In this document: positions 1,109-36,773 of the stretch, piece by piece
How the letters are laid out: each line of letters opens with the position of its first letter
How positions within the stretch are numbered: the stretch's first letter is position 1
Position numbers and translations under genes: made by a program
Notes under the pieces: generated by a model
Database searches by the model: none
Told to the model about the DNA's origin: nothing
Seen by the model: only the letters and a program-made list of their open reading frames with translations
IMG/VR virus record: IMGVR_UViG_3300032257_000055
Location: 1 to 36,773 of that record
Length of the DNA stretch: 36,773 nt
Direction: 5' to 3' (one strand)
Source of the DNA: a virus
Taxonomy: Duplodnaviria; Caudoviricetes

Positions 1109-1446
1109 GCCTTTGACTCACGCTTAGTTTTTATGTCATGGCATGATTTGCATATTGACTCTAGATTTCGCCTTTGATCTGTACCGCCCTTAGCCTTGTT
1201 TATAATGTGGTCCACGTCTACCGCTTTAGTGAATATACCGTCCCTTATACATGGTTGGCATAAATGCCCATCTTCTTGCAGCACTCTCACCTTAAGCTTT
1301 CTCCACTTGTGCCCATATCCGCGCTCATTGCTGCTCTTTCCGTTATGATTCCATGCTTCAATTTTATGATCGTTACATCTACCCTTTTTGGCTGCGTACT
1401 TGGTACACATGGGGTGAGTGCATGGCCTTGGAGCCGCCATAGGCAT
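1105..1446 (-). CDS. HNH endonuclease (HK97 gp74-like, terminase-associated)
   Basis: RGYG..W motif, CQPC, VDHIINKAKGGTD..NLESICKSCH; adjacent to cos/terS on the circular map. Confidence 0.92.
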   Translation of the reverse strand: MPMAAPRPCTHPMCTKYAAKKGRCNDHKIEAWNHNGKSSNERGYGHKWRKLKVRVLQEDGHLCQPCIRDGIFTKAVDVDHIINKAKGGTDQRRNLESICKSCHDIKTKRESKA

Positions 1447-1775
1447 TATAGTTTACTATCTATCTGAACGTAAAATCCACGGCTTAGACTTAGACCTGCG
1501 GCTGTTACGATATTATTCACAATATAAGCCTCACCACTTGAGCTGGTCGTTGTTAGTCTAACCGCGTTTGCATCTGTGTACGTTATGCCGTCAATTGTCA
1601 CCGATTGGTTTGTTTGCTCGCTTGCCTTTGTCCATCCTGCCGGCACTGTCCAGGTGCTTGTGCTTATCGTATCTCCATCCAGTTTAGTCGTCCAAACCAC
1701 ATAAAACGCATCATCATCGAGCGGGTTAAAGTCTTCGTTTAATCTTGGCGCTCGCTTACCGTTGTGTATAGCCAT
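1446..1775 (-). CDS. small virion protein, putative fibre/appendage adaptor
   Basis: Beta-rich 109 aa with P.DD..Y...W..KL.GDTISTSTW.V motif typical of small phage adaptor proteins; coupled to neighbours. Confidence 0.55.
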   Translation of the reverse strand: MAIHNGKRAPRLNEDFNPLDDDAFYVVWTTKLDGDTISTSTWTVPAGWTKASEQTNQSVTIDGITYTDANAVRLTTTSSSGEAYIVNNIVTAAGLSLSRGFYVQIDSKL

Positions 1776-2002
1776 TACTCATAAACCTCTATAATTCTAT
1801 CGCTTTTTGACATAACTAAAACCCTTTCTAGAGCGCATACCTGCGAGACCCTATCAACACCATCAACAAAAACCGATCTAGATCTAAGGCCCACATTATC
1901 CAGTGGAGACCCAATTGTATAGCCACTTGTGACAACGTTGGGAATATCACCAATTAATGTGCCATTCCCGAATCCTCTTGTTACTACTAGAGAAATTGAC
2001 AT
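1775..2002 (-). CDS. hypothetical virion-associated protein
   Basis: Translationally coupled on both sides (TAATG); VVTRGFG/VVTSGY internal repeat. Confidence 0.6.
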   Translation of the reverse strand: MSISLVVTRGFGNGTLIGDIPNVVTSGYTIGSPLDNVGLRSRSVFVDGVDRVSQVCALERVLVMSKSDRIIEVYE

Positions 2003-4272
2003 TACGTAGACCGCGTTCGGCTGGTTGGCTTTGTTGTATCAAGCGTATGCGTTGCCGCCGTTGTTGCGCCATCTAACTTTTTAGTTGTTATCGTTTTGCC
2101 AGTTATCGAAAAATCGCCTATCATTTGCTGTATCAAGTACAAAGCCTGGGCAATCGTTGGAGCCACACCATCATCCGCGTAGCTTTCCGTCATTTGCGTT
2201 GTGTGAATATCGCTTACACTAATGTCGTTCAATGCCGCTATAGCCACACCGTTTGCAGTGATACCGGCGTTGTCTGGCGCAATCGTATTGGCGCCATCAG
2301 TCCCGCGCATATCCGTATTAGTTGTTGTCACATCGACAAGATCAACATTAACAACCGCACCCGATAAAGTAGTGATTGCCCCAGCGCTTACAATGTCCGT
2401 TGCTGCTATATCGTTTAGCCCTGTAATTTGCGCGGGTATAGTCGTTCCTGTATCGACCAGTATTGCGTCAACGTTTGCATCAACTGTCGCAAGATTTGCC
2501 GCCGTTGCTGCGTTGTCAGTCCCTCGCATATCGGTATTTGTCGTTGTTGTTGCCACTGTCGTGACGTTTGCCACTGTGTCGGTTGATGGGTCGAAATAGT
2601 CAGCACTAGGAAGCGTTCGAGCCTCCATTTCCGCATTTGTCGGCCCGTCATATGCTGTTATAGCTGCACTTGACGCACTCTGAATTTGAGCGTAATCAAC
2701 TCGACCACCATCAACGATAGTCACGGCACCGCCTGAGCTATCTGTTAACGTGAAGTTGCCAAATATAGCCACCTGACCGCCTACACAGCTTGCATCAATA
2801 AGTATATTGCCTCCTTCTCCATGTATTTCTGATATCGACGAAGCAACCATGCCTTTTAACTGAATACCAACACTGGTTCTTGTAGATATAAATTGGACAT
2901 CTGCAAGGCTATTAAAATCGAATGTAGGATATGTGCCAACAGCAACGGCGCGCGGAACGTCCCACGTATATGTGTTTGATGCTTGAGCTGCCACAACGTC
3001 CCCGCCGAACGCGCAATCTGTTGCAAAATAATCGCCAAGGGTGTTGCCATCAAGCCGGCAAGAGTCAAGGAAGACTCGTTGAGCGTTGGAACCAGAGTCA
3101 TTACCCTGAATTCTTGCGCGCCTAAAATAGGAAAAACTTAGAGATCTACCATCCAGATTTACAACATACCCGCTCTGATCATTTTGGAAGTTGTACCCTT
3201 CGAAATCTTGACCTAATGCGCCTAAATTTGAACCATCAGATATGTTAAACGTGTTCAAACCTTGGGAATCTGCAATTGTTCTAGCGTCTGTAATGTTGTC
3301 GCTAGGATTAGATGCAGTTCCTACGCCAGAGCCGGTGCCTGAAATTCCTGTATTAGTGTTAATCCAAACAGCACCTCCCTCAAACCCCAAGGTTCCAGTT
3401 TGCGCAACAGCATATACAAAAACGCTATCTAATCGTAAAGTAGGGTTAGATTGAGCTGTTAAAGTTATAAATCTAGTTAGAACTCTACCTAGATTCGCGC
3501 CAGTACCCGTGTTTTCAAGGGGGATTAGAACAGCGTCAACAGTGTCATTTACTGACGTGTTACTTTTGCCCTCATAAATTGCTTTCGTTTCCCACGTAGT
3601 ATTTGTCCAGTTGTATGCCTGTATATATATCTCATCATTGCCACCGTTTAATATACCTTTAAAATCAATCAAGGTAGCGATGCGATCAGGCCCAACATTA
3701 AACTCTTGCACTATATCAATTATATTGCCCGTATCATCTATAACCTGTCGGACATTATCGGTTGCCTTTAAATCAGCAAAAGTTCCTGAAGTTTGAACAC
3801 CGACAAAGCTGACACCCTCTATCGAAGATAAAACATTGTCATTTTCAACAGCAAAAGGTATGCCAGATCCTGTTGCCGACCCTAGCGCATTTACCTGTGA
3901 TTGCGTCGCCGGATATGTGTCACCTAGCAATCCAGTCACACCATCAAACTGAAGCTCTAGATTATCGGCGGCTGTTGTGTCGTCGCTAATAGAAATGATA
4001 TTTGCATCAACTGAGGTATACACCTGGACGCTAGCCGTGATCGCTCCAGTACCGGTAAATGTGAAAGTAATATGCTCGCCGTTAGTTTCGGCCTGCGTTG
4101 GCGTGTAGCTGTGATAACCATTCCCCTCGTGAGCTGGTGCCGTTCCCGCGCCAGCCGTTTGGGTTCCGTTGTCGATAGTTACTAAGACAGAAACAGCGCC
4201 AGTGAAGGCGGTTCCATCTGCTACTGTCGTCATCTGTGCGCCAATGCTTTGACTCGCAACGTTCTTTTTCAT
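2002..4272 (-). CDS. large T/D/A/G-rich virion appendage (fibre-like) protein
   Basis: 756 aa; composition of structural fibres; repeated TTTNTDMRGTD; central beta-solenoid-like segment. Confidence 0.7.
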   Translation of the reverse strand: MKKNVASQSIGAQMTTVADGTAFTGAVSVLVTIDNGTQTAGAGTAPAHEGNGYHSYTPTQAETNGEHITFTFTGTGAITASVQVYTSVDANIISISDDTTAADNLELQFDGVTGLLGDTYPATQSQVNALGSATGSGIPFAVENDNVLSSIEGVSFVGVQTSGTFADLKATDNVRQVIDDTGNIIDIVQEFNVGPDRIATLIDFKGILNGGNDEIYIQAYNWTNTTWETKAIYEGKSNTSVNDTVDAVLIPLENTGTGANLGRVLTRFITLTAQSNPTLRLDSVFVYAVAQTGTLGFEGGAVWINTNTGISGTGSGVGTASNPSDNITDARTIADSQGLNTFNISDGSNLGALGQDFEGYNFQNDQSGYVVNLDGRSLSFSYFRRARIQGNDSGSNAQRVFLDSCRLDGNTLGDYFATDCAFGGDVVAAQASNTYTWDVPRAVAVGTYPTFDFNSLADVQFISTRTSVGIQLKGMVASSISEIHGEGGNILIDASCVGGQVAIFGNFTLTDSSGGAVTIVDGGRVDYAQIQSASSAAITAYDGPTNAEMEARTLPSADYFDPSTDTVANVTTVATTTTNTDMRGTDNAATAANLATVDANVDAILVDTGTTIPAQITGLNDIAATDIVSAGAITTLSGAVVNVDLVDVTTTNTDMRGTDGANTIAPDNAGITANGVAIAALNDISVSDIHTTQMTESYADDGVAPTIAQALYLIQQMIGDFSITGKTITTKKLDGATTAATHTLDTTKPTSRTRST

Positions 4273-4279
4273 GTCAGTA

Positions 4280-4927
4280 TCACTGTATTATTTGATTTGT
4301 GTTTGATGCCCATGCTGCCTGAAACCCGCCGCCGCCCGTTACTTCGATTACCTGAAACCCTACGGCATCAGTGGCGCTATCATCACTACATAAACACGTT
4401 ATCGTAACCGCAGCAGCAGTCAGCCCTGAAAATCGTACGTAGTTTCCGGTAGTGTCTGGAGTTCCTGCGCTTGTGCTTGTGACTTGCGTTAGCGTGCCAG
4501 AGTTGAAATTATCAGAGCCTTGGTTTTCGTAGTAATACGTTGTCGTGCCGTCGCTAACGCTGAACGTTTCGCCGCTTGCGTTCCCCACATCCTCAGCAAA
4601 ATATATGATTATGTCGTACTCAGAATACGGGATTTCGCTAAAATCTATCGTTGATCCGCTAGCGTCATCAGTCGCAACGCCACGAGTAAACATATCGAAC
4701 AGGTCACCAGACCCTACCGCTCGCGTGGTTTTGTTGCCTCGCATTGCAGCAGTAACCAAATCTAGAGTTGTGGCCGATCCGGTTTGATCCTCTAAATTTG
4801 TTTGTGACGTATTCGGAAACCCGCTGTATTGCAGCCAATTAGTATACGGCTCGACCCCAATTGTAGCCGTAGGGCTTACCGCTGTTCCGCTGCCTAAATC
4901 GCCTGATACCGCGTCACCGAATGCCAT
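4280..4927 (-). CDS. putative virion structural protein (beta-sandwich/carbohydrate-binding-like)
   Basis: 215 aa, S/T/G/D-rich; C-terminal GGGGFQAAWA; same operon as the fibre-like gene. Confidence 0.6.
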   Translation of the reverse strand: MAFGDAVSGDLGSGTAVSPTATIGVEPYTNWLQYSGFPNTSQTNLEDQTGSATTLDLVTAAMRGNKTTRAVGSGDLFDMFTRGVATDDASGSTIDFSEIPYSEYDIIIYFAEDVGNASGETFSVSDGTTTYYYENQGSDNFNSGTLTQVTSTSAGTPDTTGNYVRFSGLTAAAVTITCLCSDDSATDAVGFQVIEVTGGGGFQAAWASNTNQIIQ

Positions 4928-7474: not shown

Positions 7475-7642
7475 TCATTCTTTATCTTGCCCTTTTGGGA
7501 ACTTCCAAACAACTAAAAAAAGCAGCCCAACAAGCAGTGCGTCAGCTAGAAATGACATAAAGAAAAGCCTAAAATCTACAACCACTATAAACACCCCGAT
7601 TATCACAATCAGGGGCGTTTTTGCTTTGCTGAAAAAACCCAC
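7475..7642 (-). CDS. small two-TM membrane protein coupled to TerB, 55 aa
   Basis: Read by eye: GTG start overlaps the TerB TAG; MGFFSKAKTPLIVIIGVFIVVVDFRLFFMSFLADALLVGLLFLVVWKF. Confidence 0.7.
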   Translation of the reverse strand: MGFFSKAKTPLIVIIGVFIVVVDFRLFFMSFLADALLVGLLFLVVWKFPKGQDKE

Positions 7643-8085
7643 TAAAACTCAATACCTAGGCTTTTCGGATTCAGGCCAAGCTTACTAGCAATTTCGCCAA
7701 GAATCTTAACTTCTTCAGGCTCCATTTCACCGTCAGCCATTGCAATGGTGTACGCCGCAACAAAAACGTCTTCCGACTCTTCTGTAGAGCTTGCGCAGTC
7801 TGCGATCTCGCGCATGATCTGCATTTTTCCGATCAAAAAACCAGCATCAAGCATATTGGTGAACTTATCTACCATCTTGCCAATTTCACCACCAAAACCC
7901 TGAAGCGCTGGGTGTGCACCCAACTGAGAATTTAGGTTTTCAATTTCTTCAGGCTCAATCTCACCATCAGCAGCGGCCACCAAAAGACAAGCGCCAACCA
8001 AGCCTTCAGCTAGATCTTTGTTTTCCATTTTCTTTACTTCATTTTTTAACTGACTTGCTTTCTTACCGAATAATTTACCTAACAT
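7642..8085 (-). CDS. terB: TerB-family (tellurite resistance/co-chaperone-like) protein
   Basis: Duplicated motifs VAAADGEIEPEE and IAMADGEMEPEE...IA..LGL characteristic of the TerB fold. Confidence 0.9.
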   Translation of the reverse strand: MLGKLFGKKASQLKNEVKKMENKDLAEGLVGACLLVAAADGEIEPEEIENLNSQLGAHPALQGFGGEIGKMVDKFTNMLDAGFLIGKMQIMREIADCASSTEESEDVFVAAYTIAMADGEMEPEEVKILGEIASKLGLNPKSLGIEF

Positions 8086-11494: not shown

Positions 11495-11649
11495 TGCTAT
11501 ACTCGATGTACGCAGTGTGACAACTGTAAACAATGCAGACGACAAGAGAATCTTTTCATAGTGCCCCTTGTTGCCGTAAATCTCTAACTACCCTTAGTTT
11601 CGTTGCCTGCGCGGCATTGTCACCGAGGGGCGCTTTAAAAAGGTTCTTT
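11495..11649 (+). promoter_or_regulatory. promoter and structured 5' leader of the replication initiator
   Basis: TGCTATACT extended -10; long nested stem sequestering the RBS; GTGACAA/TTGTCAC alternative pairing. Confidence 0.6.
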
Positions 11650-12396
11650 ATGTCTCTCACAAAGTCCAAAGGATGGGTTTGCATTCATCGAGAAATGCTC
11701 GAATGGGAGTGGTACGACGACATTAATACGTCTCGCCTATTCATTCATTGCATCCTGCGAGCTAACCACACCGCAACCAAATGGCGAGGCCACGATATCA
11801 ATCGAGGGGAGTTTCTAACGTCGCTCGAAACGCTATCTAAAGAAACTGGCTTAACAGTCTCTCAGGTTCGCACGTCATTAAAAAAGCTAGAATCAACGAA
11901 TGAGATCGCAAGCTTATCGCAGGCTAGAAGCCGCATGATTACTGTGCTTAAGTACAATCACTATCAAGACAATGACAAGCAAAGTGACAGGCTGATCGCA
12001 GGGTCATCGCAGGATGATCGCAGGATGATCGCAACAGATAACAATGATAACAAGAAAAACAATGAAACAATGAAAACAAATAGTGCTGATGTCGAGACGA
12101 TTATAGATCACCTGAACCTGAAAGCTGGAACGAACTTTAAGGCATCAACAAAGGCGACTCAGAAGATATTAAACGCTCGATTAAAAACCTATTCAGTTGC
12201 TGACTGCATGAGTGTCATCGAGACAAAGTGCGCCGAATGGAAAACAGATTCAAAAATGTCTGTATACCTTCGACCTTCAACACTGTTCAACGAAACAAAA
12301 TTCGAGGGCTATCTCAATCAACCGGTAGTTAGCACTGAATACAGCTCAATAACTCAACAAAACATAAACGCCCTAAGTGGCTTGGAGCTCGACTAA
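11650..12396 (+). CDS. phage replication initiator (wHTH N-terminus, conserved phage C-terminal domain)
   Basis: GWV.IHR..LEWEWY; RGEF.TSL..LS.ETGL...QVR..LKKL; C-terminal YLRPSTLFN..KFEGYLN. Start revised to MSLTK. Confidence 0.88.
   Translation: MSLTKSKGWVCIHREMLEWEWYDDINTSRLFIHCILRANHTATKWRGHDINRGEFLTSLETLSKETGLTVSQVRTSLKKLESTNEIASLSQARSRMITVLKYNHYQDNDKQSDRLIAGSSQDDRRMIATDNNDNKKNNETMKTNSADVETIIDHLNLKAGTNFKASTKATQKILNARLKTYSVADCMSVIETKCAEWKTDSKMSVYLRPSTLFNETKFEGYLNQPVVSTEYSSITQQNINALSGLELD
11904..12082 (+). repeat. replication origin: iterons plus AT-rich tract
   Basis: Four tandem 11-mers CAGG(C/G/A)T(G/C)ATCG at 11988-12031, two ATCGCA copies at 11904-11923, then A-rich AACAATGA x3. Confidence 0.75.
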
Positions 12397-12983
12397 TGGA
12401 AAAGCACGAACAAGATTCATTCAAGCAAACGCTTATCGGTATTGGTGAGCTCCACGGCAAGCAGATAACGCCTGCACTGGTAACGATCTATTGGCAGGCA
12501 ATGAAAGGCTTCACGCTAGAGCAATTCAGCGAAGGCATTAGTAAACATTGCCTAGACCCTGACTGCGGCCAATTCTTCCCAAAGCCTGCTGATATTGTTA
12601 AACAGCTACAAGGGACCAGTAAGGACAACGCAAGAGCTGTTGAGGACCGTGCAAAAATAGCGTGGTCCGTACTTATGGACCGAGTAGCTAGAATTGGGCA
12701 TCACGGCAACTTAGAGCTTGACGACAAGCAAGCAATAGCAGTCGTAAAAGCCATGGGCGGCTGGAGAAAGCTTTGCATGATAACTTACGACGATATGCCA
12801 TGGCGCGAAAAGGAATTTATCTCACTTTACGACACTTATGAGAATACGCCGCTTGAAATGCTGCCTAGCTCCTTACCAGGGCTTGATGACTTAACGAAAC
12901 ACAAGAAAGAGGCGCAAGAGCAAGCCGGCAACGTAATGGCCGGCCTAGAGGCTTACAGAGCGAGGATAGGCAAAGATGGATAA
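12396..12983 (+). CDS. putative helicase loader (DUF6475-like)
   Basis: Directly after the initiator; YW..M......F...H..DPD.GQFFPKPADI; MGGW..LC. Confidence 0.75.
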   Translation: MEKHEQDSFKQTLIGIGELHGKQITPALVTIYWQAMKGFTLEQFSEGISKHCLDPDCGQFFPKPADIVKQLQGTSKDNARAVEDRAKIAWSVLMDRVARIGHHGNLELDDKQAIAVVKAMGGWRKLCMITYDDMPWREKEFISLYDTYENTPLEMLPSSLPGLDDLTKHKKEAQEQAGNVMAGLEAYRARIGKDG

Positions 12984-17502: not shown

Positions 17503-17660
17503 CTCAACAGCAAGCAATAGAAAAGCGCATGGCTCAGATAAAGCGCAACGGCATTAACGATCGAGCTGAAGGGCTTCCGTCTATGCCCGGGCAAGCAAGC
17601 CCTTACTACGAAGGCTACAAGCAGCAAAGCGAAAGAATGGGACTGAGGACGGTAAAATGA
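17484..17660 (+). CDS. small hypothetical protein
   Basis: Read by eye; AAGG RBS; ATGA overlap with erf. Confidence 0.5.
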   Translation: MRTNGMTQQQAIEKRMAQIKRNGINDRAEGLPSMPGQASPYYEGYKQQSERMGLRTVK

Positions 17661-18262
17661 ACGAAAGCTTAAATATATATCAAAGAATTAACGCTGTAAT
17701 GAGCGAATGCCAATATATTCAGAAAGTCGGGGCGCAGCAAGGGAAGGGCGTTAAGTATGATGAAGTAATGGCAATGATCCGCGAGCTTTTAATTAAGCAC
17801 GGAATTGTTATGGTTATGCGTCAATTGTCGCTAGATATTACGGGCGGCGTCGATGGAACAAAGCAGAAGGTATATCAGGGCCATTACGAAATGGATCTTG
17901 TAAACATTGACGCGCCGACCGAGATTGTTACACATTCTACATTTGCCCACGGCATGGACGGAGGAGATAAGGCTCCAGGCAAGGCGCACACGTATGCGGC
18001 TAAATTAATGCTTGTAAAGGGCTTCGGAATCGAAACCGGAGAAGATGAAGAAAGCAGATCAGAAAAGCAGGACCGAAAAAACACAATATCTGACGCTGAA
18101 CAAAAAAGCCTAGCTGACATGATTCGCGGAGATTCGAAACTATGGAGCAAGCTTTGCACTGCATACAAGATCAGCAACTTATCAGAGGTTCCAAGCTCTA
18201 AGCTCGCAGAAATGACCGGACGAATTGAGAAGTTTTGGAGTGCCAAAAATGCAAATAATTAG
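17657..18262 (+). CDS. erf: ERF-family ssDNA annealing protein
   Basis: NIYQRI..V; G.D.GDKA.GKA.TYA.K..L...F.I.TGED.E signature. Confidence 0.9.
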   Translation: MNESLNIYQRINAVMSECQYIQKVGAQQGKGVKYDEVMAMIRELLIKHGIVMVMRQLSLDITGGVDGTKQKVYQGHYEMDLVNIDAPTEIVTHSTFAHGMDGGDKAPGKAHTYAAKLMLVKGFGIETGEDEESRSEKQDRKNTISDAEQKSLADMIRGDSKLWSKLCTAYKISNLSEVPSSKLAEMTGRIEKFWSAKNANN

Positions 18263-18854
18263 AGGCGTTGATCAAGGATCAGGTGAGTGGCTAGATATCC
18301 GGCTAGGCAAAGTCACCGCAAGCAAATTTAAAGATGTTATGGCCGGCGGCAAAGGCGCAACTAGAAAAGCCTATATGCTTCAGCTCGCAGCTGAAATAAT
18401 AACAGGCATGAAAACCGACACATTCAAAAACAAGGCAATGGAATGGGGGACGGAAACCGAAGATCAAGCGCGCGCTAATTACGAGCTTAACGAGTCGCTA
18501 GAGGTCGAGGAGGTATCCTTTGTACTGCACGACACTTTAAGCGCTGGCGTAAGCCCTGACGGCCTTGTAGGTGATTGTGGGCTAGTCGAGTTTAAGTGTC
18601 CGAACACTACTACCCAGATCGAAACGTTCTTATCTGGAAAGATGCCAACGACTCACAAAGCGCAAGTTCAAGGCCAATTGTGGATAACTGAGCGCGAGTG
18701 GTGCGACTTCGTAAGCTACGACCCCAGAATTAACGGGGCCGCTGAATACTTTTGCGTTCGCATAAATCGTGACGATGAATATATAAAAACGCTAGAAGAA
18801 GGCGTGATCAAATTTATTAATGAACTAAACGAGCTAGTAGGAAAATTACGATGA
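18249..18854 (+). CDS. YqaJ/lambda-exonuclease family protein
   Basis: QGS.EW...R.G..TAS; M.WG...E..AR; SPDGLV....LVEFKCP; QVQGQLW....W.DF.SY. Confidence 0.93.
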   Translation: MQIIRGVDQGSGEWLDIRLGKVTASKFKDVMAGGKGATRKAYMLQLAAEIITGMKTDTFKNKAMEWGTETEDQARANYELNESLEVEEVSFVLHDTLSAGVSPDGLVGDCGLVEFKCPNTTTQIETFLSGKMPTTHKAQVQGQLWITEREWCDFVSYDPRINGAAEYFCVRINRDDEYIKTLEEGVIKFINELNELVGKLR

Positions 18855-32303: not shown

Positions 32304-32984
32304 CTATAATTTAAAGTTTAGTAGTGCATTTAGTGTTTCTTTTTCTTCTTTCTCGTCACGCTCACCGTGAATGCTCTTTACTGCCGCCACGGTCGCCGTG
32401 GCTTCAGATTGCGAAAGACCTTTTTCTCTCAAAAACTTTTCTACATCTTTTAGATGCTTTACCGACTTTATGCAAGTCTTAGACTCTTTAATATCTGCAA
32501 GACCTAGTGATTTTATTGCAGCCATAACGTTCTCTCCCATCATTCTTGGCTCACACGGCATGACCGTTAGTGTGTCTCGCTTTAAGGGCCAGTCAATAAT
32601 GTTTTTTCCATCTCTGCGCGTTCTTGAACCTATGGCTTCGCTAGAGTTTCCGATCACGCCTGCATCAATTAACGGCTCTATAAACTCCATATATTTAGCG
32701 TGACGATTAAGTACGCGCTCGACAAATATTCCATTGTCATCTACAACCGCAGTCTTCCAATCAACAAAACCTAGAACATCATCACTATTTACTCCCAAGC
32801 CATCAGGATCTAGACCGTGCTCGAAATCAACATGAAGCATTTTAGACGCCGTATACGGACTATCGAAATTTGTCGTCTTTAGGAAAGTTTCGCCGGACAT
32901 ATCCCGCCCGCCAAACAATACTATATAGTTTGATACTCTTAGCTCGTCATCACTTGATGATACCGATTTTAAATTATTATTCAT
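32304..32984 (-). CDS. prohead maturation protease (HK97 family)
   Basis: Between portal and capsid; D..GE.F, EH catalytic His, G.SS nucleophile, LTV.P.EPR. Confidence 0.85.
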   Translation of the reverse strand: MNNNLKSVSSSDDELRVSNYIVLFGGRDMSGETFLKTTNFDSPYTASKMLHVDFEHGLDPDGLGVNSDDVLGFVDWKTAVVDDNGIFVERVLNRHAKYMEFIEPLIDAGVIGNSSEAIGSRTRRDGKNIIDWPLKRDTLTVMPCEPRMMGENVMAAIKSLGLADIKESKTCIKSVKHLKDVEKFLREKGLSQSEATATVAAVKSIHGERDEKEEKETLNALLNFKL

Positions 32985-34170
32985 TGATTCCACCATTTTC
33001 CGATCCAAGCTCGACCAAAGAGCCATTCATGTATAAATTATCCCCGCCAGCCTTTGGGGGCCGGCCCTCTTCGGCCCTCCCCTCGTTTGGCGTTATCAAC
33101 GACGCGTTTACGGCTTTCGATTGAGCGTCAAGCCTAGTAGCCATATCTGCACGCAAAAGGCTATCAAAATTAAATTCTATATCTGTCGTTTTCCAATCTT
33201 CGCGAGGCATCAAGTTAACCTTCATGCTTAGCTCAATACGCTCCAGGTATGGCTTAACATTCAGTTTATAGAATCCCATGTTGATTTCAGCTATACCGCT
33301 ACCCCATGTTGTGGTGCCTGAAGTGTCATTAATTAGAACGGATGGCACACCTATAAACCTTGCCAAATCTTCAACAGAATATTTCCTGCTTTCTAGCAGC
33401 TGCATATCTGTTGGGCTAAGGCTTGTTTGCTGGTATTTAAAGCCAGCTTCAAGCACGAATAGAGAGTTGCTATCACCTTCGTTTAGCCCTTTATATGACT
33501 CCTTAATAGATTCTTTTTGTGCTGCTGTTAGAGCTTGATCTATAGTCAGTACGCCGTTTGTTTTTCCTCCGTTAGCAGCTAAAGTTCCCTGCCTATCAGC
33601 TAGATCTTTACTTAACCCAAGAGCATTTCCAGCGTATAACAAGGGTGAAAGTCCGACTATTCCATTGCCAAATATTTTTATATGCCAAATTGAATCCTCG
33701 CTGAATATTTTTACACTACCGTCTTCCGCTTTGTACTCGTAGACTATTGAGCCGTCCTTCATTAAAAACACATCAACTTGAGATGAAGGGTAAACCATCA
33801 GGGAAACTATTCGCCCAGCGGAAATCTGCTTTACAACATATGCATTACCCCATACGACAAGGTTTAGCATTAACTGCTCAAAAAACTCTATTTTTGTTTG
33901 GTATCTATTCGGCCTGTAATTCAAGAGTTCCCATAGGTCATTGTCTGTCTTTGGGGATTTTACGTTAGTTTCTAGATCCCGCTCATAGCAAACCAAAGGC
34001 ATTACCGAGACGGTCTCGGTAAGAAGTCGCACACCGGCCCAAAAAGCGCTCTGAGTCATTGCGACATCGAAGCTCTTTACTTCGGTAGGGGTGCTAGGAT
34101 ATTCCTTCTGCCGCCCCTCGGAGACAGTATCCCCGCCGTTGCCAAAAATATTAGAGAACCAATTAGACAT
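32977..34170 (-). CDS. portal protein, HK97 family
   Basis: LL..RPN.YQT..EF; L..WGNAY; G..GLSP; LE.R.YSVEDLAR..GVP; TPNE.R. Confidence 0.95.
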   Translation of the reverse strand: MSNWFSNIFGNGGDTVSEGRQKEYPSTPTEVKSFDVAMTQSAFWAGVRLLTETVSVMPLVCYERDLETNVKSPKTDNDLWELLNYRPNRYQTKIEFFEQLMLNLVVWGNAYVVKQISAGRIVSLMVYPSSQVDVFLMKDGSIVYEYKAEDGSVKIFSEDSIWHIKIFGNGIVGLSPLLYAGNALGLSKDLADRQGTLAANGGKTNGVLTIDQALTAAQKESIKESYKGLNEGDSNSLFVLEAGFKYQQTSLSPTDMQLLESRKYSVEDLARFIGVPSVLINDTSGTTTWGSGIAEINMGFYKLNVKPYLERIELSMKVNLMPREDWKTTDIEFNFDSLLRADMATRLDAQSKAVNASLITPNEGRAEEGRPPKAGGDNLYMNGSLVELGSENGGINE

Positions 34171-34178
34171 TCATACCC

Positions 34179-36077
34179 TTAACGCGCTAAAACTAATAAA
34201 TCATTAAAATCAATTCGAGCCGCATTGTCATTCATTGATCTGCTCAATGCCATCATGTGCGCTACAGCCCCATCTATTTTATTTTCTTCGCGCTCTTTGC
34301 GCGGGTAAACGTTGTCCTTTGCATCGGTTTTAGCGACAACGTTTGACAACATCCAAGTAAAAACTGGGTCGCCATTGTGTGAAACCTTTCTAGATCTAAT
34401 CAAACCGTCCATTTGCTTCATTGGCTCACTAAAATTAAGCACAGTTGGCCGAACCTCAACAACGGGAACGCCCTCACTCATAAGCTCAGTAACTAGCATT
34501 GTAGCTTGAAAAGGATCATAAGCCAATTCAACAAGCTCTAACATGCTTGACAGCTCCAAAATATCCTCTTTTATCTCGTTAAAGTCGATTATTTCACCAT
34601 CTGTTATAGTGATATAGCCCTCTTTTGCCCATGTCGAATAGTGAGAATTTGCCGCCCCATCGATAGCAGCCTCCGGCAAATAGTATTTTCCGAACCTTAC
34701 AAAGCTTTCGTCGCCCAAAGGAATCAATATTTCTAACGCAGCAACATCAACCTTGCTTGCCAAATCTAGGCCGATATAAGCGCGCATCCCTTTGAAATCT
34801 TCCAGCTTTAACGCTGTATCCTCTGCCTCAATCCACCGCTCAACATTGAAATAAGCTTCACGAGATCCAACCCACACATTAAGATGCTTTGTTTTATAGA
34901 CTGATTGCTTTCGAGCGTTGTTTTTGGCGTCGGCAAGTCTTGCTAATAGGAAATCTTCACCAACCGAAACGCCGAAATTAGGATTCGCTTTTTTTAGTGT
35001 CTCAACGCTTGCCCAATCGTCACCAGAATCAACCGAATAAATAAGCGCAAACAGCCTATCATTCTCTACCGCACCGTCTAGAATCTTCTGAGCTTCGAGC
35101 TGTAGCGCATAACACGGCCCAGAAAGGTTATCCCCCGCCGTTGTTATCGATAACAGCAAAGGCTGAGAGCGCGCCCCCATACCCGTTTGCATAGTGTCGT
35201 ACATTCTATCGTCAGAATGCTCGTGATATTCGTCAACAATTGCGCACGACGGGCTTGATCCGTCACCAGGGTTTCCAATTATTCGCTCAAACTTGGAGCC
35301 GGTTTTGGGAATGTTAATATTTGACGCACGAACATCAACGCCAAAATGATCGATAAGTTGCGGGTTATTTCTAGCCATGATCTGAGCGGGTATGAATACT
35401 TCGCCGGCCTGTTTCTCACTAGTCGCCCCGCTATACACCTCGGCTCCATGCTCGCCATCAGCACACAGCATATATAAACCGATAGCCGCGGCCAGTTGAG
35501 ACTTACCATTCTTACGCGGAACCAGTAGCAGAATCTCAGAATACCGGCGTAGGTCATTCTTTTTGCGCTTCCACCCGAAGATATTAACGACAAAAAACAC
35601 CTGCCAAGGCTCAAGTATTAAGTTTTTACGCTTGCGCGACCACTCGCCCTTAGTGTGAAACTGAAGCTCGACAAACTTACACGCCTTAGCTGCCGCTGCG
35701 TTGTCGTAGTAGCAAAGTGAGTCCTTGTCGTTTAGGTCGTTAAAGAAATTCCGACACGCTAATCGAATATATTTGCCGGCTGGGATCTCTCCGGATAGAA
35801 CACCTTCAGCGTACCCCTTAGCTATTGAAGTGTAATTCTTGCCGCGTGGTGCTGATACCATAACAACCTTTTCGGGCTGCTTGCGCTCTTGCTTTGGCGG
35901 CTCTGCGCCTTGCTTGTCGGCGCGCATTTGAAGGTATGCGATAACCTCTGGATGGCTGGCGTCTATCTTTTTGCCAACGAAGGCGTTAGGGAATTGCTTA
36001 CTGGCTACGCGGGTGATCGTAGCGGGATTAACACCCGCACGCCGCGCCAGATCTGCCTTGGTTATTAATTGTTGCAT
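34179..36077 (-). CDS. terL: terminase large subunit with N-terminal HTH extension
   Basis: L.PWQ; Walker A VPRKNGKS; Walker B AIVDEYH; ITTAG; GLDLAS..D; YDP; KIDG.VA. Confidence 0.96.
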   Translation of the reverse strand: MQQLITKADLARRAGVNPATITRVASKQFPNAFVGKKIDASHPEVIAYLQMRADKQGAEPPKQERKQPEKVVMVSAPRGKNYTSIAKGYAEGVLSGEIPAGKYIRLACRNFFNDLNDKDSLCYYDNAAAAKACKFVELQFHTKGEWSRKRKNLILEPWQVFFVVNIFGWKRKKNDLRRYSEILLLVPRKNGKSQLAAAIGLYMLCADGEHGAEVYSGATSEKQAGEVFIPAQIMARNNPQLIDHFGVDVRASNINIPKTGSKFERIIGNPGDGSSPSCAIVDEYHEHSDDRMYDTMQTGMGARSQPLLLSITTAGDNLSGPCYALQLEAQKILDGAVENDRLFALIYSVDSGDDWASVETLKKANPNFGVSVGEDFLLARLADAKNNARKQSVYKTKHLNVWVGSREAYFNVERWIEAEDTALKLEDFKGMRAYIGLDLASKVDVAALEILIPLGDESFVRFGKYYLPEAAIDGAANSHYSTWAKEGYITITDGEIIDFNEIKEDILELSSMLELVELAYDPFQATMLVTELMSEGVPVVEVRPTVLNFSEPMKQMDGLIRSRKVSHNGDPVFTWMLSNVVAKTDAKDNVYPRKEREENKIDGAVAHMMALSRSMNDNAARIDFNDLLVLAR

Positions 36078-36112
36078 GCAATTATTTTAAAGCTTGCATG
36101 CAACTACTGCAA
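36072..36112 (-). promoter_or_regulatory. leaderless sigma70 promoter for terL with two TTGCATGCAA palindromes
   Basis: TTGCAG-17 bp-TAAAAT-6 nt-ATG; palindromes at 36072-36081 and 36094-36103. Confidence 0.7.
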
Positions 36113-36120
36113 GTTAAACC

Positions 36121-36312
36121 TTAATCATGGCCGCTTTTGCCCTCATCACAGCCAATAGCCTTAAGTAAGTCGTCATCAACTACAATCTGTAGATTAAGTA
36201 TCGCTACATCTTGAATCTGCATATCAATATTGGCGCTTCGCACCTTCTTAACGCCTAAGTGATCCGATATACGTAAAATTAATTCTCGACCTGATAATTT
36301 TCTACTGACCAC
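36121..36312 (-). CDS. hypothetical protein between terS and terL
   Basis: GTG overlaps the terS TAG; GGAG RBS. Confidence 0.6.
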   Translation of the reverse strand: MVSRKLSGRELILRISDHLGVKKVRSANIDMQIQDVAILNLQIVVDDDLLKAIGCDEGKSGHD

Positions 36313-36713
36313 TACATTTCTCCAAATGGGTTATCGTTCTCGCCTTTGGGCACTACGATCTTTTGCCTGTCACTTGGCGTCATTCCGTACCGCGACATTA
36401 GCGAATCGAGGCGCGACAACTCCGCACCATTCAGCTGAGGTATGACCGCCTCCTTGTCAAACTCACCATGGCGAAATCGATAAAACAGCTTAGACATTAA
36501 TTCGAATGTAGGTCGATCCGTTTCGCTCAGTACACCGACGAACATGACCGAGACAAGATAGTCCCACACTTCTCGCTCACCCTCAGAAAAGTAAGAAGGT
36601 GCCGGCCCAATTCCGCGAACAACTTTAGGGGCGTCTTTATTTGCACGCCCTGAATTATGCTTTGCTGAGCCGTTTAAGTCTTTCATCAACTGCGGCTTTG
36701 CTGGTCTACCCAT
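36312..36713 (-). CDS. terS: terminase small subunit (P27-like)
   Basis: MGRPAKP...K.L.G; AP......E...W; GMTPSDR.K; NPF; AAGGAG RBS. Confidence 0.9.
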   Translation of the reverse strand: MGRPAKPQLMKDLNGSAKHNSGRANKDAPKVVRGIGPAPSYFSEGEREVWDYLVSVMFVGVLSETDRPTFELMSKLFYRFRHGEFDKEAVIPQLNGAELSRLDSLMSRYGMTPSDRQKIVVPKGENDNPFGEM

Positions 36714-36749
36714 GTCGGGACTCCTTTAATGTGAACAGTGTAAACTTAT

Positions 36750-36773
36750 ATTTTGAGGGTGTAAAAAAATGAC
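36750..36773 (-). other. cos terminus, downstream half of cosN region
   Basis: Minus strand begins GTCATTTTTTTACACCCTCAAAAT, 60 bp upstream of terS. Confidence 0.65.

Follow-up and report, generated by a model that had tools for sequence, protein, structure and literature searches.

A large terminase is a nuclease and ATPase without specificity, the dose of which must stay low, and to our knowledge little is known outside SPP1 of how phages keep it so. The terminase of SPP1 reportedly represses its own synthesis, a result said to come from Chai et al. in 1997. Elsewhere, the lambda repressor cI made from PRM is a leaderless autoregulated repressor, and the start of the IS10 transposase gene is protected from read-through transcripts by a hairpin. 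We know of no promoter at lambda cosB. For SPP1, a passage of PMC6316719 places pac over late promoters, those of the terminase operon.

The locus described here lies in a window (the whole stretch of DNA analysed, 36,773 nucleotides) of 36.8 kb of phage DNA from microbial mat metagenomes; its head module, HK97-like, is on the minus strand. Its large terminase (TerL) resembles HK97-type TerL in its PF03354 and PF20441 domains, its match to phrog_9, the gene order, a P27-like small terminase (TerS), an HNH gene and a cos-type end, but differs in about 79 extra N-terminal residues with a winged helix-turn-helix (HTH), a predicted leaderless promoter and twin palindromes. The extra domain is similar in sequence and fold to the DNA-binding domains of lambda gpNu1 and phage 21 TerS and to the TerS proteins of phrog_13700 and phrog_57 (Shewanella phage SppYZU01_04), the stand-alone family that we call the donor. 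As at the R sites of lambda cosB and in the donor genes, short sites are repeated in both orientations beside the gene start. In contrast to gpNu1-type TerS, the HTH is joined to TerL and not to an oligomerisation domain, and the sites are abutting perfect palindromes far from the genome end. Terminase-binding DNA would overlap terminase promoters as in SPP1, but SPP1 uses a separate TerS acting on pac, where the DNA is cut; the present domain belongs to TerL, the sites lie away from the place of cutting, and a leaderless mRNA is predicted. The likeness to cI lies in a leaderless start with overlapping operators and that to IS10 in a hairpin hiding the start codon of outside transcripts; here the HTH is of another class (Xis/MerR-like) and the regulated product is a packaging ATPase-nuclease. 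Terminase self-repression is already known from SPP1, and the HTH-on-TerL architecture was not found in the literature searched. Titles and abstract openings, mostly of papers outside subscription journals, describe neither an HTH-fused TerL nor leaderless terS promoters of the donor family, and the portions of two reviews searched for the word "fused" (PMC9611059, PMC7617512) hold no passage on a fused TerL.

The gene and its neighbour downstream are laid out as follows:

34179..36077, minus strand: complete fused terL, 632 aa, an ORF without internal stop that opens at ATG 36077
35910..36077, minus strand: winged-HTH domain of small-terminase type, residues 1-56, from homology searches and a model; the predicted recognition helix, NPATITRV, lies within it
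35841..35909, minus strand: variable charged linker, residues 57-79, modelled at low confidence and including Met73 (35859-35861)
35103..35609, minus strand: TerL ATPase domain, PF03354 (E 3.5e-27, above the curated cut-off)
34236..35069, minus strand: TerL nuclease domain, PF20441 (E 6.1e-38, above the curated cut-off)
32977..34170, minus strand: portal gene, starting 8 nt after the terL stop with its own Shine-Dalgarno (SD) sequence

The fused protein matches phrog_9 with an E value of 8.5e-168, and its best structural match is HK97 TerL (6z6d), obtained with a low-confidence full-length model (built from 8 sequences, mean pLDDT 47) that was used for this match only. Genes are ordered terS-terL-portal-protease-capsid. 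An HTH-TerL fusion had been read from the sequence in the original prediction, and it is borne out by the single 632-aa frame, by selection on the HTH (below) and by contigs of the X3 run covering 35821-35989 and 35966-36773, which span the HTH, the linker and the TerL start with zero differences. Neither the window ORF nor these contigs show a stop or frameshift between the two parts. An assembly artefact is unlikely because the X3 contigs are identical and seven other fused proteins exist. A short isoform from Met73 had also been proposed; the SD there is weak (duplex -4.8 kcal/mol), Met73 itself is private to the window genome, and the other four fused loci have no in-frame start codon between codons 52 and 100. 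As a conserved feature the isoform was rejected, as Met73 is not conserved among fused TerLs. Met51 (window 35925-35927), by comparison, is invariant in all eight fused proteins and has no SD; its invariance is probably structural.

Outside the head module, several regions of the window were recorded. An HNH gene lies at 1105-1446, and between it and the early region a minus-strand block (1446-4927) holds genes without family matches, including those for a Thr/Asp/Gly-rich protein of 756 aa and for a protein of 215 aa. A TerB tellurite-resistance-family gene (PF05099, phrog_632) is found at 7642-8085 on the minus strand; on the plus strand are a replication initiator with a DUF6475 partner (11533-12983) and an ERF annealase with a YqaJ exonuclease (17657-18854). 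No integrase was found in the subset of window ORFs that was scanned.

Residues 1-56/65 match phrog_13700 (E 2.5e-7) and phrog_57 (E 1e-4), and among phages the HTH is best matched by genes of SppYZU01 and Vibrio phages that immediately precede a large terminase. The 129 representatives matched are mostly 200-300 aa long and match at their N-terminus; of the 40 that were scanned, all match phrog_13700 and 34 also match phrog_57 (terminase small subunit). Only residues 1-56/65 align, and a gpNu1-type C-terminal oligomerisation or TerL-binding domain was not matched. PHROGs labels phrog_13700 as FtsK/SpoIIIE-like; by these alignments it is likely a small terminase and the label wrong, and the label seems to stem from an FtsK-gamma insert in some members. 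The model of the HTH (pLDDT 81.5) is a winged HTH of two helices, a beta wing and a third helix, and a homodimer prediction (score 0.00) points neither way. Structural comparison placed Xis (4j2n, Z 5.7), 7lxs (Z 5.5, rmsd 2.7, 48 aligned) and 6hn7_B (Z 5.5) in the top rows, which were tied among Xis, TerS DNA-binding domains, pSK1 Par and MerR-like domains; Z values of 5-5.7 show fold class only. Foldseek against the PDB gave nothing at E<=0.001, a PDB sequence search gave the TerS 7LWR at E 0.16, and a deeper profile gave AdcR of the MarR family (E 4e-4), in an alignment confined to the helix pair. The Pfam models HTH_3, LacI and HTH_26 reached E values of 0.015-0.03, all below cut-off. Of the HTH pattern originally named (Cro/LacI/gpNu1), the gpNu1 part holds through the phrog_57 and phrog_13700 homology; a Cro/LacI type was rejected, since those models stay below cut-off and the top structures are Xis, MerR and TerS. 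By homology, the domain is a gpNu1/Xis/MerR-type winged HTH of the small-terminase family that stands before lambda-type (GpA) large terminases.

Among 206 candidates from a search with residues 1-110, 8 proteins are fused (632-655 aa, the window's included), all with both TerL domains; with locus L023, fused TerL is known in nine sequences. Thirty positions are invariant among the first 55 residues of the fused proteins, and the linker varies freely. DNA was available for four fused relatives (L004, L017, L022 and L023), which with the window make five loci; what else matched in the DNA searches were unfused TerLs or short HTH hits. Across their 10 pairs, pN in codons 4-55 is 0.05-0.18 vs a pS of 0.54-0.80, and by this measure the HTH fusion is under strong purifying selection. 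Judged from these comparisons, the HTH-fused TerL is a real, conserved and rare architecture. Among 30-346-aa proteins, none of six candidates proved to be a free-standing or split HTH nearly identical to this one. A quick tree of 49 TerL cores groups the eight fused proteins in one clade with four short TerLs, which have ordinary-looking starts and are interleaved with them, with four changes between the fused and short states, at least three of which are forced by starred branches. The short P0138, whose unfused state was judged from its predicted protein and an ordinary-looking start, is the window's sister at 89% core identity; none of its DNA was found in viral_contigs, and the X6 and X7 runs do not extend over the terL start. 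The HTH module thus appears optional among close relatives and easily lost or swapped, provided that the short forms are called correctly. Such relatives, apparently without the HTH, are what one would expect of a neutral leftover of recombination between two terminase modules, a reading we consider scarcely tenable, as it is largely refuted by the strong purifying selection on the HTH, and the non-coding sites are kept too.

Upstream of the fused cassette the DNA differs between loci, with terS lying there directly or after one to three other ORFs. One such ORF is present in the window:

36121..36312, minus strand: 63-aa ORF of no known family, between terS and the terL promoter

This ORF is absent in L017 and L022, and other ORFs take its place in L004 and L023. 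Similar-looking small ORFs of unknown kind are inserted between terS and terL at L004:222-500 and L023:787-984, and the gap seems to be an insertion hot spot.

Directly before and over the start of the fused gene, the following elements were recognised (the palindromes have no strand):

36107..36112, minus strand: predicted -35 box TTGCAG, containing a TTGCA half-site, with TTG at the same position in 5/5 fused loci
36094..36103, no strand: palindrome 1, TTGCATGCAA, in the promoter spacer, perfect in 5/5 fused loci
36084..36089, minus strand: predicted -10 box TAAAAT, at the same spacing in relatives
36072..36081, no strand: palindrome 2, TTGCATGCAA, over the predicted transcription start and the start codon, perfect in 4/5 loci

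Read on the minus strand, TTGCAG (36112-36107) is followed by 17 nt, TAAAAT (36089-36084), 6 nt and ATG 36077, and the two palindromes are 22 bp apart. This is the layout of the original prediction, including the half-site in the -35 box and the missing SD: none precedes ATG 36077, where the duplex energy is +0.2 kcal/mol vs -8.2 for terS. A consensus promoter scan did not list the terL promoter, because its -35 box agrees with TTGACA at 3/6 positions only. With one mismatch allowed, TTGCATGCAA has only two matches in the whole window, and the chance mean being 2.7, two copies somewhere are not unusual; the 41 bp around the palindromes are the genome's densest TTGCA/TGCAA cluster (5 half-sites). 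Since the -35 box is weak and two near-copies of the 10-mer are expected by chance, relatives are needed to judge the arrangement, and the case for the predicted promoter rests on conservation in them.

All five fused loci have TTG, a 17-nt spacer holding TTGCATGCAA, TAnnAT, 6 nt, and an ATG inside the second palindrome. At equal spacing, the -10 box reads TATAAT in L004, L017 and L023 and TAGGAT in L022, so that its geometry is kept in 5/5 loci, and four of the five have no SD before the start. The exception is L022, which has a possible SD (-4.0) and whose second site is imperfect by one mismatch. As a control, 40 loci of unfused TerL were taken from two overlapping sets (75 and 80); among the 34 to which a start could be assigned, neither the palindrome nor a -10 box 6-7 nt before the start occurred (0/34). 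Twin palindromes alone were found in eight viral loci, one fused and seven elsewhere, and by themselves are not specific to fused terL. The palindrome/-10/palindrome pattern had two matches in viral_contigs, both fused loci. Among the twin sites seen elsewhere, L011:2602-2632 has two copies of TTGCATGCAA at a distance of 21 bp, immediately before what looks like the head-gene block of a lambda-like phage, with no HTH-TerL after them; at L014 (~3001-3030) and L015 (~2567-2596), the copies are 20 bp apart upstream of a small gene that we take to be AlpA-like.

Locus L023 keeps the promoter and both sites with 164 nt between the ATG of the second palindrome and the TerL start; an ORF of 55 codons begins at that ATG and ends in a stop codon overlapping the TerL ATG. 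The ends of the 164-nt insert (L023:1940-2107) look tRNA-like: they pair in the manner of an acceptor stem and include a T-loop motif. Neither ARAGORN nor Rfam called an RNA gene there, Rfam mir-8186 rows being chance hairpin matches, and the insert folds at shuffle level (z -0.07).

The donor family was examined at 80 loci, of which 69 were taken (near-copies and partial matches left out) and 64 kept after four duplicates and one short row were dropped. In 54 of the 64 the gene precedes an ORF of >450 aa, which was GpA-type in 6/6 tested. TAnnnT stands 6-7 nt before the start in 51/64, and a common end motif opens 36/69 loci, 82-108 nt ahead of the ATG. Upstream there are short direct repeats about 11 bp apart, one of them at -35, inverse of the start-codon region. 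In the 56 rows that remained when eight without a -10 box were left out, the start-codon hexamer recurs inverted upstream in 21, vs 6.5 in shuffled pairings, 0/5000 of which were as high. The NPxTxxR-type helix occurs with TTGCA in 7/7 cases, and TTGCA in 8/64 loci overall; the SxAAVTK-type helix occurs with TTAAC in 20/25 and with TTGCA in 0/25, these helix classes having been defined after inspection of the data. The fused proteins (NPATITR, TTGCA) fit the donor rule from helix to repeat. A tree built from the C-terminal 128 residues scatters the NPxTxxR type (6 changes), and the analysis suggests that the donor 5' cassette is exchanged as a block. Linkage can therefore explain helix-site covariation; independent helix-site pairs were 3/3 on starred branches, an underpowered comparison (p 0.25). 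Of the proposal that sites co-vary with the recognition helix, the association is thus seen in the donor family and its independence is confounded by linkage. In lambda-type loci (L027-L106), the genome end itself carries a leaderless-type promoter with helix-matched repeats, some 90 nt ahead of the terS ATG, and these terS genes are likely autoregulated, as far as their sequence goes. A stand-alone terS (L076:70-90) is identical to the window over the 15 bases that run from the -10 box to the end of the ATG. The cassette would have moved onto terL as a unit.

The donor sites also bear on the idea that the HTH targets the TTGCA terS-promoter/cosB sites, genome ends or TerS of competing lambda-type phages, its own sites limiting the dose. 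TTGCA is present at the genome end of 8/64 donor loci, the patchy presence of the fusion fits a conflict trait, and Rpp proteins of PICIs, which carry a similar domain, hijack TerS via heterodimers, according to a passage of PMC9026076. However, no shared host is shown, and donor sites are 11-bp-spaced direct repeats and not abutting palindromes, so that we regard this idea as very improbable.

RNA folding was predicted for both kinds of transcript. In read-through RNA the AUG is predicted to be paired (unpaired probability 0-0.04) in 5/5 fused loci, and in leaderless RNA it is predicted to be mostly free, again in 5/5. By this prediction, the two palindromes of a read-through transcript fold into a hairpin that hides the AUG. 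Any palindrome present twice gives a hairpin, which weighs against the best reading given below, and pairing beyond the palindromes exceeds that of shuffles in L004, L017 and L023 and not in the window or L022. With the AUG hidden in read-through RNA and free in leaderless RNA, TerL synthesis would depend on its own promoter, so repression would hit TerL more than the head genes. The palindromes might act only as this RNA hairpin, blocking TerL from read-through, with the HTH a general DNA grip for packaging. We hold this to be unlikely, while ranking it first among the alternatives: the hairpin in all five loci, the extra flank pairing in three and the poor specificity of the lambda DNA-binding domain alone (in a passage of PMC9026076) speak for it, but a hairpin needs a mere inverted repeat and not two self-palindromes of fixed sequence, the half-site is the same as with this helix type in stand-alone TerS genes, and the window and L022 are without extra pairing.

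Upstream of terL, the resident small terminase and the genome end were placed as follows:

36312..36713, minus strand: resident small terminase, P27/Terminase_4-like, with a strong SD (phrog_83, E 5e-20)
36737..36765, minus strand: weak promoter-like site upstream of terS, TTTACA-17-TACACT
36764..36773, minus strand: likely physical genome end, 3'-cos type, its overhang missing from the assembly

The resident terS is below the cut-offs of PF05119 and TIGR01558; with its phrog_83 match, it is the separate normal terS that had been noted from the sequence. The promoter-like site is weak because such sites occur in the region at chance level. The genome end is 60 nt upstream of terS and about 670 nt from palindrome 1. 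Contigs of X1, X2, X3 and X5 stop at 36773 (X1 and X2 may be the source), unfused relatives have the same end motif, and the motif is intact in L134 and L195; because the end recurs across runs and matches the relatives' ends and the L134/L195 motif, cos is likely here, 60 nt before terS. The window therefore has the HK97-type set of a separate small terminase upstream, an HNH helper and a cos end near terS.

From the palindromes to the terS start the distance is 372 nt (L017), 412 nt (L022), 610 nt (window) and about 1795 nt (L023), whereas across fused loci the palindromes are fixed to the base relative to the -10 box and the ATG. A fixed site-cos distance like that of gpNu1 was not found, as the distance to terS and the end varies, and no TTGCA half-site occurs in the 60 nt either side of the window's ends. 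In the passages seen, lambda cosN-cosB spacing is critical (PMC9026076) and HK97 TerS binds 15-29 bp from the cut (PMC11331095). A promoter role is favoured over packaging because the palindrome-end distance varies whereas in lambda the spacing is critical and HK97 TerS binds close to the cut. The sites could instead serve as a cosB-like anchor inside the genome, at which TerL would be loaded close to the left end so as to start or stabilise packaging. Donor sites, at about 40-110 nt from the contig end, are placed like lambda R sites, and the fold is tied at the top with TerS DNA-binding domains; against this stand the varying distances, the lack of half-sites by the window's ends, an intact resident TerS, the close HK97 binding just cited and the fact that an anchor need not keep promoter geometry. 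We rank this anchor second among the alternatives, and rather unlikely.

The best reading is autorepression, because the promoter geometry and twin palindromes are kept in 5/5 loci and the helix type tracks the site in donors: TerL, through its HTH on the two TTGCATGCAA palindromes, would repress its own predicted leaderless promoter, and the hairpin would hide the AUG. We put its probability at roughly 0.6. In this mechanism an HK97-type TerL, with a fusion, conservation and selection that are evident from the comparisons above, carries a winged HTH homologous to lambda-type TerS, and the donor stand-alone genes have the same 5' cassette, with the -10 box 6-7 nt before the ATG and sites at -35 and over the ATG. 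Transcription would start at the A of ATG 36077 and give an mRNA with a free AUG, and longer transcripts are predicted to pair palindrome 1 with palindrome 2 and so bury the SD-less AUG. Two HTH domains per palindrome would block RNA polymerase, and free TerL would cap its own level. Read-through RNA could still yield terS, portal and capsid, and for packaging the phage would rely on its ordinary resident TerS and on the cos end. The original prediction had extended repression to downstream morphogenesis genes, which is not implied, as transcripts for them could come from the promoter-like site before terS and portal is preceded by an SD of its own.

Several points count against self-repression: the apparently optional module, the linkage, the weak -35 box, the possible SD and imperfect site of L022, and the nonspecific twin palindromes. 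Passages of two papers add that HK97 TerL is a monomer in solution (PMC9410871) and that the isolated lambda DNA-binding domain binds specific and non-specific DNA about equally (PMC9026076). The same proposed sites could serve TerL to activate its promoter, as positive feedback for a late burst. The MerR-like fold, the site in the spacer and the weak -35 box are in keeping with activation, which is nevertheless quite improbable, as the second site covers the predicted start and the spacer is an optimal 17 bp, while MerR-activated promoters have long spacers.

More tentatively, and with odds somewhat short of even, self-repression may be one case of a swappable promoter-operator-HTH cassette. 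The lambda-type TerS family would then consist of leaderless autorepressors that use their packaging sites as operators too, by a helix code of NPxTxxR to TTGCA and SxAAVTK to TTAAC, and capture of the cassette on the large terminase of one HK97-type lineage would give a motor that senses its own free level, insulated by the hairpin from the head operon.

If self-repression is true, a TerS DNA-binding domain would have been reused as a transcription regulator on the motor subunit, in a compact design of a 60-residue domain and 41 bp of DNA. In the donor family, DNA reading by small terminases can be studied on dozens of natural helix/site pairs.
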